DNA of 64,000 nucleotides. It comes from an uncultured archaeon. GTDB taxonomy: Archaea > Thermoplasmatota > Penumbrarchaeia > JASLWR01. The translations under genes and the position numbers were made by a program. Below, piece by piece: positions 49,341 to 52,450 of the stretch. The stretch lies in assembly GCA_964342815.1 (NCBI GenBank), contig CAYFHS010000006.1, positions 85,850 to 149,849 of the forward strand. Reading direction: 5' to 3'. The stretch's first letter is position 1. The number at the start of each line of letters is the position of its first letter. Below the pieces are notes generated by a model. The model did not search any database and was not told where the DNA came from. It was given only the letters and a program-made list of their open reading frames with translations.

Positions 49341-50396
49341 TCACAGTTTGTTTCCACAGGCCGGGCAGGCCACCCACCCTGATTGAACATCCGCACCGCA
49401 TCCGGGACATGATAATTTCACTTTCTCACCGCATCCTGGACATGCGATCCATCCCGGTTGTATGCCCCCGCCGCAGTTCGGGCAGGCTTCGGCAGCCCCG
49501 CCCCCACCTCCACCACCCACATTTGTGCGGGTCAACACACTGTCCTGTATATGGGTTTCACCGCTTCCTCCGGAACCGCCTCCACCTCCCCCGCCTATAT
49601 TGGAGCGCTGAACCACGCTGTCTTTTATTGTAACATTGCTTTCGTCGCCGATTCTACCTATAGCTACGTTACCCCCGGACCGTGCGGCTTCCCTCATGGC
49701 GTCCCCGGCGGCCAGTTTCGTCCTCTTCATTATCTGTTCATCCGTGAAAGCAGATATGGTGGATACCTCCTGGATAGCATCCTTTACCTTCTTTGGCGGA
49801 TTGATGTACAGCTCAGATATTTCAGTTAGTACCATTCCCATGTCCTCGAATGATCTTTTACCAGCTTTTACTGTGACATTTCCGATAGCTTTCAATTTTT
49901 GCGGGATCTGAGTTACGGCCATTCCCTTCTTTTTCATATATCCCAGAGCCTGGTTGAGCGCCATTACCACCTCATCCCGTACGATCTCAGCTATGTCTTG
50001 TGAGGTGAGAGTCCCTCTGTCCCTTCCTATCTCGTTAAGGAATTTGACCGGATCCGTTACCCTGTATTTGTATTCACCAAAAGCCTGCAGCTGCACCATG
50101 TCAAACCTGGCATCATGGAAGGTCAGCGGCTGTTTTGTTCCGAACTTTCCCTCGAACTTTTGGCGGGATACGAAAAAAACGTTCCCCTCTGAAGCTAGCG
50201 TTGTCTGACCAGGTTCGGAAATGACCTGTTTTACAGCACCATATTGAAAAAGGACGGCAAATTCATTTCCCCTCACCACCAGCGGATTTCCGGCCTTTGC
50301 CGGTTCAGGGTATTTGAATACCAACTGATCTGCTTTTTCATTTTCAGGCCACATGACGGTTCTTGATCCGCTTTTCTTAAAAAGTCCCATATGCAT
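49341..50396 (-). CDS. SPFH/band-7 (YdjI-like) protein with Gly-rich linker and double zinc ribbon
   Basis: LVVRGNEFAVLF, KFGTKQP, AFGEYKYRVTDP; CPNCG...CPGCG...CPGCG...CPACG. Confidence 0.85.
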   Translation of the reverse strand: MHMGLFKKSGSRTVMWPENEKADQLVFKYPEPAKAGNPLVVRGNEFAVLFQYGAVKQVISEPGQTTLASEGNVFFVSRQKFEGKFGTKQPLTFHDARFDMVQLQAFGEYKYRVTDPVKFLNEIGRDRGTLTSQDIAEIVRDEVVMALNQALGYMKKKGMAVTQIPQKLKAIGNVTVKAGKRSFEDMGMVLTEISELYINPPKKVKDAIQEVSTISAFTDEQIMKRTKLAAGDAMREAARSGGNVAIGRIGDESNVTIKDSVVQRSNIGGGGGGGSGGSGETHIQDSVLTRTNVGGGGGGGAAEACPNCGGGIQPGWIACPGCGEKVKLSCPGCGADVQSGWVACPACGNKL

Positions 50397-50582
50397 ACCT
50401 CGGTTGATAGCTAATCTATTTTATTAAGTCCGTACAATCGTAATCCCTCCCAATCTACTAAAAATATTCGCCTGTAACATCATGATTTTCAGAAATTTAC
50501 GCGCACAACGATAAAATCATAACATAGAACTGAAATCAGGTCATAATATAAGGGAAAGAGACCAAAACGAACAGGCGAAATC

Positions 50583-51239
50583 ATGTCGAAGAAATCCATT
50601 GCGATTCTGGAGTCCACCAGCTTTATTGATGCGCTGAATGCGGTAGGAACATTATTGAGTGAGGTAAAGGTCACTCTTGCGGGGAGGTATTTCCTTGGGG
50701 AAGGGAAAGTTGCAATAGTGTTCAAGGGAGAGCCCGAGGCAATAACATCGATTATTTCTATAGCGGAGAACCGTATGGGGAATCTGGAGTTGAATACAGG
50801 TGCAGTACATGATCTTCCTAGGAAAGCAATGGAAGTTTTGTTGGCTCCGCACAATGGTTTTCACCCGGTTTTCACTGTACGGGAATCTACTCCTGTTGAA
50901 AAGCTTGCCATCGGAAAGGAGGTGGGAACTGCAGCTGATATCGAAGGGCTCTATATCGTAATGAGCCCTCAGGGTCCTACGGTTTCATTTGAACGGGTTC
51001 CTGGGCTGACCTCGAAAAGAAAGAAACGATTGAGCGAAGTACTGCAGTATTTCTGGGCCAACAAGAACCGAAAGATTACAAGCAATGAGGTAGCGCGAAT
51101 CCTTGATCACATTCCGAAACCCACTTTGGGGAGAGATTTGGATTATTTATCTCAATGCAGTCTCATTGGAAAGGAGGGGAGGGGTCGCGCGACATATTAT
51201 CTATACCGGCCTCTCGATGCAGGAAACCGCAAAGACTGA
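50583..51239 (+). CDS. BMC-H-like shell-fold domain fused to C-terminal winged-helix (DeoR/Fic-type) DNA-binding domain
   Basis: Residues 1-87 align nearly gaplessly by eye with PduA-type BMC-H (LE, LxG, LGEG pore, G-E, AVHxxPR); residues ~145-208 carry TLGRDLDYL and EGRGRATYY. Confidence 0.7.
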   Translation: [218 protein letters not shown]

Positions 51240-51541
51240 TTCTTGATATTGCATCAGTTGATGATTCATTGGTAAAGGCGACCCTATTGGCTCCCATTTC
51301 ATTCCGGCGAATCAGTAGATGCGCCTGATCCCGACATATAATCGAGATTATATTAGGGTTCGGAGAAACTTGTTTCTCCATCACCCTCGGCTAGTAAGCC
51401 TACGGGCTCGCCAAACTTGTCAAGTGGTGACTTTACAAGTGAATGTTAAATATGGCTGGATCATTCAGGTGCTCGGTGAGTGGCGGGAACTGCCGCCTTC
51501 AAACCCGGATTCATTCTATTTAACACAGGAGCGGTGCACGT

Positions 51542-52450
51542 ATGGTATTTGAATTAGATCTGAAAAAATTGAGATTCGGTACGGAACTGTTGAAGAGAGG
51601 ATTTGCAAGGATGCAGAAGGGGGGTGTGGTGATGGATGTGACCAATGACGAGCAGGCCCGAATTGCCGAGGAAGCCGGAGCTGTTGCTGTCATGGCTCTC
51701 GAGAGGGTTCCTGCCGATATAAGAGCGGAAGGCGGAGTTGCAAGGATGGCAGATCCACAGATGATAACGAGGATCATTGAGACCGTGACCATTCCCGTCA
51801 TGGCAAAATGCAGGATCGGTCACTTTGCCGAGGCCCAGATTCTATCGACCCTGGGAGTGGACATGGTGGACGAGAGCGAGGTGTTGACACCTGCAGACCC
51901 CTTCGATCACGTTTACAAAAAAGATTTCGTAATACCCTTCGTTTGCGGGTGCAGAAATCTCGGTGAAGCCTGCCGAAGGATCGGCGAGGGTGCGGCCATG
52001 ATCCGTACTAAGGGCGAGGCGGGTACCGGCGATGTGGTGGAGGCTGTAAGGCATATGAAGACTTTGAACCGTGAGATCGCTCATCTCAAGGAGCTGGGAG
52101 ATGAGGGTATGAAAGATTACGCAGAAGAAATTAACGCGCCGTTGGACGTTTTGCTTGAAGTGAAGAAGATGGGCCGACTCCCCGTCGTGAACTTTGCAGC
52201 AGGCGGTATAGCCACCCCTGCCGATGCTTCTCTGATGATGCAGCTCGGTTGTGACGGGATATTTGTCGGAAGCGGTATATTCAAATCCGGGGACCCTGCT
52301 CTTCTCGCAAACGCCATTGTGGAAGCTACAACTCATTATGATGATCCCCAGATACTCGCCAAAGTTTCCAAGGGCCTAGGGGCGGCAATGAAGGGGCAAC
52401 AGGCGGGGGATATACCCGAAGAGGAAAGGCTCCAGTACAGGGGTTGGTGA
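51542..52450 (+). CDS. pdxS: Pyridoxal 5'-phosphate synthase lyase subunit
   Basis: [58 protein letters not shown]. Confidence 0.98.

Follow-up and report, generated by a model that had tools for sequence, protein, structure and literature searches.

A diverged microcompartment shell domain joined to a winged helix in a Thermoplasmatota archaeon: one of two paralogous subfamilies and a candidate DNA-binding regulator

To our knowledge, bacterial microcompartment (BMC) domains have no known role other than in the construction of microcompartment shells. Among described proteins, EutK combines an N-terminal, non-permuted, hexamer-type (BMC-H) domain with a linker and a small C-terminal helix-turn-helix (HTH) presumed to bind nucleic acid, and the function of this appendage is unexplained there too (PMC5821096). 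Regulators of the DeoR family commonly accompany BMC loci of the sugar or sugar-phosphate kind, and the sugar-phosphate (SPU) type, as defined by Axen et al., has been linked to the catabolism of DNA and deoxyribose-5-phosphate (PMC4207490). In archaea, microcompartments have been described in Hodarchaeales in a preprint of November 2025, which also notes related operons in 'JASLWR01 (Thermoplasmatota)' (PMC12747264, bioRxiv 10.1101/2025.11.08.687404). It is to this order that the uncultured archaeon studied here belongs: the window, by which we mean the whole stretch of 64,000 nucleotides that was analysed (contig CAYFHS010000006.1 of GenBank assembly GCA_964342815.1, positions 85,850 to 149,849), carries a gene, here called the fusion gene, that encodes a BMC-H domain fused to a winged helix-turn-helix (wHTH). 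An earlier interpretation made from the letters of the window alone (the sequence-only reading) had proposed this architecture, which sequence profiles and structure searches bear out, and had presented the gene as an isolated invention in a domain of life where BMC shells were not a feature; the preprint makes the latter statement outdated, and the former proved wrong, as the lineage has SPU microcompartments and two paralogous subfamilies of BMC-wHTH genes, to one of which the gene belongs. We are confident that the N-terminal domain is a member of the BMC superfamily, and that the protein is a true BMC-H and wHTH fusion within an archaeal microcompartment gene set.

The fusion gene lies at 50583..51239 on the + strand (ATG start, 218 aa, stop codon included, as given by the list of open reading frames and its translation), and its product falls into three parts: a diverged, non-permuted BMC-H domain (residues 1-92, 50583..50858, +), recognized from Pfam and PDB matches, profiles and structure; a conserved acidic middle segment (residues 93-140, 50859..51002, +), delimited by alignment, models, substitution rates and charge; and a basic arm (KRKKR) with a winged helix-turn-helix that ends in the wing motif GRGRATYY (residues 141-218, 51003..51236, +), assigned from models and structure searches. 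Orthologues are 84-43% identical, and measured against the same-genus orthologue the ratio of nonsynonymous to synonymous substitution (dN/dS) is 0.08 overall, with 0.09 in the BMC domain and 0.05 in both the middle and the winged-helix segments, a strong purifying selection by which the gene is functional. The AlphaFold2 model of the protein has a pLDDT of 78.8 overall, about 84 in the N-domain and about 90 in the winged helix.

Judged by profiles and models, the N-terminal ~90 residues are a genuine, diverged BMC-H homologue, with a similarity that exceeds chance. Residues 1-66 align without gaps with solved BMC-H structures (the RMM protein 5l38, the PduA-type 7mmx and the HO BMC-H 6ner), and the segment AVHDLPR falls on their (A/S)VHVIPR, which confirms the gapless match to PduA given in the sequence-only reading. 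A phmmer search of all PDB chains with an E limit of 10 gave 38 sequences, and the top thirty or so were without exception BMC-H, led by an HO BMC-H tandem protein (5e-5), an RMM shell protein (2e-4), a PduA-type protein (7e-4) and CsoS1/CcmK (~1e-3). The Pfam BMC model (PF00936, gathering score 24.5 bits), which had been suggested as a check, covers residues 5-65 and divides in its answer: the single sequence stays under the cut-off, scoring 15.6 bits at full length and 18.4 when only residues 1-90 are taken, and orthologues and their profiles are significant, the G003 orthologue scoring 25.3 bits and the orthologue P0006 having a precomputed PF00936 match. NCBIfam added weak CsoS1 and ArsR-type HTH matches. 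A profile of orthologues only (alignment A2, 9 sequences) found about 55 BMC chains in the PDB, with a best E of 5.4e-11; PII, ACT and RAM domains were absent from its PDB matches at E up to 1, its sole non-BMC match being a spurious one of a PPR protein to the KRKKR segment. Compared by hhalign with canonical BMC-H proteins of sister genomes, A2 gave a probability of 95.1% and an E of 3e-8. In the structural comparisons BMC-H again ranked first: the best 50 Foldseek matches in the PDB were all BMC-H (target TM about 0.8, rmsd about 2.2 Å), and VIA-align, which is independent of Foldseek, placed BMC-H at Z 10.1-11.4, PII-like proteins at 8.4-8.6, CutA at 8.1 and an ACT protein at 7.9. The modelled topology is beta-alpha-beta-beta-alpha-beta-alpha (E4-11, H14-27, E31-39, E42-49, H51-64, E70-78, H80-87), and because beta2 (31-39) and beta3 (42-49) are joined by a turn of 2 residues, the model has no PII T-loop. 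A better score for another ferredoxin-like fold, which the sequence-only reading had named as a refutation, was thus not obtained. A four-copy complex prediction of the N-domain, run without controls, had a median score below the mark and counts neither for nor against self-association.

The winged helix that had been proposed for the C-terminus is recovered by the models, VIA-align and Foldseek alike, and is of a type found in transcription regulators. It comprises residues 143-212 (pLDDT about 90) and reaches Z 8-9 in VIA-align to the winged helices of Fur, Rrf2, ArsR and IclR proteins, and its Foldseek matches include Fur, PerR, SmtB, MepR (MarR), BlaI (BlaI/MecI), HxlR and TubR. A feature search of the ESM Atlas led, with scores of about 0.75, to small DeoR-like HTH clusters, and HTH_DeoR (PF08220) matches 4 of 12 C-termini of the family but not that of the fusion protein itself, whose own HTH Pfam matches are confined to weak HTH_20/ArsR hits, none of them significant. 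The 48 residues between the two domains (pI 5.1), once described as a ~55-residue linker, do include a low-confidence stretch after the BMC domain and are partly disordered (98-110); they also carry the motifs LAPHxGFxPV and SPEGPxxSFE in invariant columns of A2, and in the model they include a short beta hairpin packed ahead of the winged helix. Conserved as it is, and held by purifying selection, this segment is no plain linker.

The resemblance to EutK extends to the plan of the protein, with an N-terminal BMC-H domain, a connecting segment and a C-terminal HTH, and ends there. The C-domains are unrelated (against E. coli EutK, the C-terminal alignment had an hhalign probability of 0.1%; EutK_C, PF16365, had no Pfam match at E up to 10 and is absent from the fold-search lists of the C-domain), and the BMC domains are only 19% identical. 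EutK, moreover, is encoded in a bacterial eut operon, whereas the fusion gene is archaeal, has neither eut genes near it nor linkage to shell genes, and encodes a protein without the tiling lysine. By these sequence comparisons the archaeal fusion is independent of EutK and analogous to it, and we do not file it as EutK. In a shape search of the ESM Atlas, bacterial clusters of BMC with EutK_C and of BMC with Rho_N matched the model over the BMC domain only, the EutK cluster being among the nearest structures; it follows that BMC-H has acquired appendages that bind nucleic acid more than once, the archaeal wHTH being a further independent case.

The DeoR regulators of sugar-type BMC loci (GRM5, PVM and PVM-like) share with the archaeal family a winged helix that is DeoR-like in the paralogue described below (24 bits against a cut-off of 21). 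DeoR proteins have an N-terminal HTH followed by DeoRC, a domain that binds sugar phosphates. In the fusion protein, by contrast, the HTH is C-terminal and its partner has the BMC fold; no DeoRC domain is found, the protein ending 6-10 residues after the wing, and on this arrangement it is not filed as a DeoR-family regulator.

The closest relative within the organism itself was found by a genome-wide BMC search. The assembly (G000; 4.35 Mb in 116 contigs, 88.9% complete, 3.2% contamination) has the window on contig C6, and on contig C1 it carries a minimal shell operon of three co-oriented genes and no enzyme gene (G000:C1:87862-89570; L001:437-2145), which we call the satellite operon. Its members are a BMC-P gene for a 90-aa EutN/CcmL pentamer protein (58.5 bits), a gene for a divergent tandem BMC protein of 179 aa (31.5 bits), and a second BMC-H-wHTH gene of 225 aa (G000:C1:88911-89570; L001:1468-2145), whose product scores 56.7 bits for BMC and 24.0 bits for HTH_DeoR. 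The operon is conserved in 4 of 4 genomes of the archaeal family and has archaeal flanks (a methanogen-type SerRS and RadB); following it on the opposite strand are an M24 Xaa-Pro peptidase gene and an Sm-like gene. Its sole hexamer-type protein thus bears a winged-helix head, and no canonical BMC-H gene was found by the genome-wide search of this 88.9% complete assembly. The term 'orphan' given to the fusion gene therefore holds only for the window, where a PF00936/PF03319 scan confirmed that there is no other BMC-domain match, as there is none for these two families on the rest of contig C6; the BMC-P, the tandem BMC and the second BMC-wHTH lie on contig C1, and relatives have full shell-plus-enzyme loci.

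The fusion gene and its orthologues form subfamily A, and the satellite-operon gene and its orthologues subfamily B. Members of B have the same three-part architecture as the fusion protein, to which they are about 30-32% identical over the full length, and the two subfamilies share an invariant G34-R35-Y36..L38-G39 signature (GRY(F/L)LG), the basic arm and a GRGRATxY wing. They differ in that subfamily B clears the Pfam cut-offs for both BMC and HTH_DeoR, keeps D22/K26, has a GGG pore, a linker rich in Lys and Arg, and N29 in 2 of 4 members (the paralogue in the window's genome included), and shares its operon with BMC-P and tandem BMC, whereas the linker of subfamily A is acidic and its genes adjoin pdxS, away from shell genes. 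On these alignments the fusion gene is a drifted paralogue of the shell-operon BMC-H-wHTH gene of the same genome. A further arrangement was seen in a genus without subfamily A: P0012, of 341 aa (L069:7001-8026 = G002:C3:~172690), has a BMC-H domain with D22/K26 kept and two tandem winged helices with a Lys-rich spacer between them, and its gene adjoins a ferritin/rubrerythrin/hemerythrin cluster.

The drift extends to the edge by which shell hexamers tile into facets. Numbered after PduA and compared with canonical BMC-H proteins of the sister genomes (motif ADAMVKAAKV...GGG...IPRPH), which keep D22 and K26, the fusion protein has G22 for D, S26 for K, K29 and R80, a pore loop of G39-E40-G41, and the Arg of the IPRPH motif kept as P79-R80, in agreement with the substitutions, the G-E-G pore and the retained arginine reported from the window alone. 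Position 26 is S, G or R in 7 of 7 subfamily A sequences and K or R in all of subfamily B; in A the pore loop varies and carries charge, and in B it is GGG or GDG. Among the Foldseek matches are PDB entries whose titles call an Asn-Arg-Lys triad essential to the assembly of Pdu shells and describe free hexamers for K26A; PduA deprived of K26 still makes hexamers but neither sheets nor shells, and the PduA K26A/K26D structures are among the best structural matches of the model. In those hexamers, as in the fusion protein, the edge lysine of the antiparallel Lys-Lys contact between hexamers is missing; they are engineered mutants, whereas the loss in subfamily A is natural, conserved subfamily-wide and combined with a domain of DNA-binding type. 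The loss of K26 in subfamily A, while the shell-operon paralogue keeps its tiling lysine, fits a protomer that no longer tiles, and because neither its edge motif nor its locus agrees with such an assignment, the fusion protein is not classed as a facet-forming shell hexamer of the PduA/CcmK/EutM type.

The lineage in which both subfamilies occur is narrow. The source organism belongs to the Thermoplasmatota order JASLWR01, with a same-genus relative in GenBank JASLWR010000008.1 ('Thermoplasmatota archaeon'). An exhaustive HMMER scan of 1.84 billion cluster representatives gave 7 matches to the fusion family, as did a word-indexed search of 5.8 billion, and among 61 related genomes the family is confined to four genomes (three genera) of a single archaeal family. 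Of 301 genomes sampled from the phylum, 5 have BMC domains, namely the same four and one with an unrelated EUT-type module (G005). Of what the sequence-only reading had proposed to look for in archaeal genomes, the fusion was found in these four genomes of one family, and BMC-P and BMC-T genes occur there as well. Three sister genomes (G001-G003) have a complete metabolosome locus of the SPU type, the main locus, with shell genes for a permuted or tandem BMC, three BMC-P, one BMC-T and one or two BMC-H (93-98 bits), interleaved with enzyme genes for an aldehyde dehydrogenase, a PduS/RnfC-like flavoprotein, triose-phosphate isomerase (TIM), RpiB and a DeoC-type aldolase. It shares with the published archaeal microcompartments the lineage, the SPU type, three BMC-P genes, a tandem BMC-T, the lack of a PTAC gene and the theme of DNA-binding appendages on shell proteins; the published appendages, however, are Lys/Arg-rich disordered pentamer tails, and the preprint gives no account of BMC-H fused to a folded winged helix, of the satellite operon or of subfamily A with its unlinked genes (PMC12747264). 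That text has no mention of a regulator, HTH, DeoR or EutK, a 2021 BMC catalogue has no mention of such fusions, and a full-text literature search gave nothing relevant on a shell protein with a winged helix or on SPU with DeoR. In the main locus of G002 (contig C6 of that genome), a BMC-P of 171 aa (L043:11836-12348) has a very Lys-rich C-terminal tail of ~70 aa, which resembles the disordered, DNA-capturing tails that pentamers of Hodarchaeales microcompartments are reported to have (PMC12747264).

Searches of the window's own assembly by protein family, by the DNA of the same-genus locus and by the aldehyde dehydrogenase did not find the main SPU locus, and absence and non-assembly are indistinguishable here because 11% of markers are missing. 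The same-genus locus DNA and aldehyde dehydrogenase matched only a ~90-nt repeat and an unrelated, 31%-identical aldehyde dehydrogenase, and the rest of the sister contig that carries the main locus was also unmatched.

We tentatively favour, at a little less than even confidence, a reading in which subfamily A, a non-tiling paralogue of a shell protein, works as a soluble oligomer that binds DNA and regulates genes. After duplication, subfamily A would have left the shell operon and lost facet tiling; its product would be a soluble oligomer, presumably the BMC-type hexamer expected from homology, with its C-termini on one face, and this oligomer would present several winged helices to DNA, so that a DNA-binding regulator would have been derived from a shell protein. 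Genes of the microcompartment or of sugar-phosphate metabolism would be its most plausible targets, with its own promoter or the neighbouring pdxS as further possibilities; purely as speculation, PdxS consumes ribose-5-phosphate and glyceraldehyde-3-phosphate, the pool on which RpiB, TIM and DeoC act, which may offer a link. We prefer this regulator because K26 is lost, the pore is charged and variable, the basic linker is lost, the C-domain has regulator-like neighbours, and the gene is a separate transcription unit with a conserved promoter block of its own. The block is A/T-rich (…CTAAAAATATTCGCC; 50453..50473, +), is conserved at all orthologous loci in an alignment of five upstream regions, and is probably an archaeal BRE/TATA promoter element; in a 12-mer scan the orthologous blocks upstream of A genes had at best 4 mismatches in total, where shuffles had 7-9, and nothing else in that scan stood out.

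Several points weigh against a regulator. The same scan, taken across the upstream regions of subfamily A, the satellite operon and the main locus, found no motif shared beyond shuffled controls; the main SPU locus is not found in the window's own assembly, so that a regulatory target there would be hypothetical for this organism; the fusion gene adjoins pdxS only among close relatives, in two genera and in related metagenomic lineages; and most of subfamily A retains an Arg or Lys at the position of PduA R79, which may preserve part of the edge contact. Control of pdxS or of the divergent SPFH gene, as suggested by the sequence-only reading, is not supported, and pdxS has a conserved promoter of its own. 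Presentation of winged helices with six-fold symmetry would also be unusual, transcription factors normally binding as dimers. The stronger proposal, that the BMC fold has been exapted as a free, non-tiling oligomeric transcription factor or sensor, with a charged-pore hexamer as its oligomerization or ligand-sensing platform, we regard as doubtful.

Given two paralogous subfamilies in an SPU-microcompartment lineage, a function connected with the compartment is no less likely than a new, free-standing class of transcription factor, and the alternative that best survives is of this kind. In it the fusion protein would be a shell-anchored DNA tether, which alone or in mixed hexamers with subfamily B inserts into facets and binds DNA non-specifically. 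In BMC-H hexamers both termini lie on the concave face, which faces outward in solved shells, and with winged helices on that outer face the protein might capture DNA from which deoxyribose phosphate is obtained, or else fix compartments to the nucleoid and serve in their segregation. For subfamily B, whose gene belongs to a shell operon and whose product retains both the tiling residues and a linker rich in Lys and Arg, the genomic evidence makes association with shells as a DNA tether very probable, and the idea gains from the Lys-rich tail of the sister-genome BMC-P, from the tie of SPU loci to DNA and deoxyribose-5-phosphate catabolism (PMC4207490) and from the bacterial BMC fusions to EutK_C and Rho_N (PMC5821096). 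Extended to subfamily A it is unlikely, if still a serious contender: the arginine equivalent to PduA R79 is kept, but K26 is lost in every member, the pore loop is charged and variable, the linker is acidic rather than basic, the genes lie away from all shell genes behind their own promoter, and the window's own assembly has yielded no canonical BMC-H gene.

Less probable again, and in our estimate improbable, is that the winged helix mediates contacts with protein or RNA, the fusion protein being an adaptor that recruits a partner to a BMC oligomer. Winged helices of this non-transcriptional sort, those of Rpa2, the MCM C-terminus, SelB and Z-alpha, do appear among the structural neighbours of the C-domain at similar Z, and the lack of a significant Pfam HTH family for the fusion protein agrees with them. 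Most of the neighbours, however, are DNA-binding repressors, the paralogue clears the HTH_DeoR cut-off, and the C-terminal segment has a pI of 10.1, a basic wing and a basic arm in which K145, R146, K147 and R149 are invariant, which are features that suit DNA. The weakest alternative, that the N-domain has some other ferredoxin-like fold (PII, ACT, RAM, CutA) or that the gene is a bacterial contaminant, a chimera or a decaying pseudogene, could appeal to the subthreshold single-sequence Pfam score and to PII-like and CutA folds at Z about 8, and is scarcely tenable given BMC-H folds 2-3 Z units higher and alone in the Foldseek best 50, profile searches that at E up to 1 give essentially BMC only, with no PII or ACT, a topology without a T-loop, and a gene held at dN/dS 0.08 between MCM/DUF424/SPFH and pdxS/NAD kinase in several independent assemblies; we have rejected the PII, ACT, CutA and RAM identities on profile search, topology and Z ranking, and pseudogene or contamination on selection, recurrent gene order and archaeal neighbours.

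The gene order in the window is MCM, DUF424, a divergent SPFH/Band-7 zinc-ribbon gene, the fusion gene, pdxS, DUF5817 and NAD kinase, the two immediate neighbours being those named by the sequence-only reading. The same order surrounds orthologues that are 45-53% identical in independent assemblies, and in one lineage the upstream side is rearranged with pdxS still downstream of the fusion gene; in a family member without subfamily A, and in another family, other genes stand upstream of pdxS. Because this order recurs in several related genomes, and with MCM and DUF424 as neighbours, the contig is archaeal and not chimeric, the opposite of the bacterial or chimeric origin that would have undone the earlier proposal.

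Between the promoter-like block and the start codon, a repeat search found an inverted repeat with exact 8-nt arms, ATGATTTT and AAAATCAT, 23 nt apart (50482..50520, no strand assigned), a candidate operator that is kept only in the same-genus orthologue and so is without independent support. Within 50300-51700 there were no Rfam matches and no terminator-like sites. The neighbouring pdxS (51542-52450) has a strongly conserved promoter block of its own, GTGAATGTTAAATATGG (51436-51470), shared by five lineages, in which an inverted repeat, TGAATG-16 nt-CATTCA (51440-51467), brackets a TATA-like box in the window's genome. This repeat has one match in the window, against 0.11 expected, and its confinement there to the pdxS promoter makes it uninformative on the targets of the fusion protein. 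The pdxS leader also contains a GC hairpin (GGCGGGAAC..GCCGCC) without an Rfam family, and this upstream block and leader could be a regulator site or a leader element of PLP synthase.

Some further features were met in the related genomes. In the main locus of G002, TIM has an N-terminal extension of about 55 aa (L043:12358-13269) and the DeoC-type aldolase one of about 270 aa (L043:15069-16505), both candidate encapsulation or targeting segments, and the first BMC gene is separated from the first BMC-P by a gene for a 263-aa protein of no known family. Just after a BMC-P gene of G001 (L045:6086-6186; G001:C119) lies the ~90-nt element with an internal hairpin (CAGAATCG...CGATTCTG), which recurs in at least 6 places in the window's genome (contigs C10, C12, C39, C13, C34 and C7) with 73-85% identity; it is probably a small repeat that is dispersed among intergenic regions. 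The EUT module of G005, a member of another family of the same class, consists of an EutC-like gene followed by an EutL-type BMC-T gene on a GC-rich contig (L073; G005:C56:8000-13278) and may be either bacterial contamination of a fragmented metagenome-assembled genome or a separate horizontal acquisition; a 240-aa BMC-matching frame in it was considered as a wHTH fusion and rejected as part of this EutC and EutL-like module.

The recent report of archaeal microcompartments is extended in that JASLWR01 has, beside the SPU locus, a minimal shell operon of P, T and H types, and the hexamer-type protein of this satellite operon with its winged helix, together with the Lys-rich pentamer tails, points to a physical link between compartment and DNA. 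The fusions would represent a third independent case, after those with EutK_C and Rho_N, of nucleic-acid-binding modules on BMC-H, and we know of no explanation ever given for the function of modules of the latter two types. A conserved, natural, non-tiling BMC domain joined to a winged helix would show a way in which shell proteins can be recruited to gene regulation or to DNA tethering, and the pair of A and B paralogues offers a natural experiment on which residues decide between tiling and a soluble hexamer. Were subfamily A indeed an exapted free factor, it would be the first BMC-domain protein to act outside a shell, and would do so in an archaeon, alongside a paralogue that is still associated with one.

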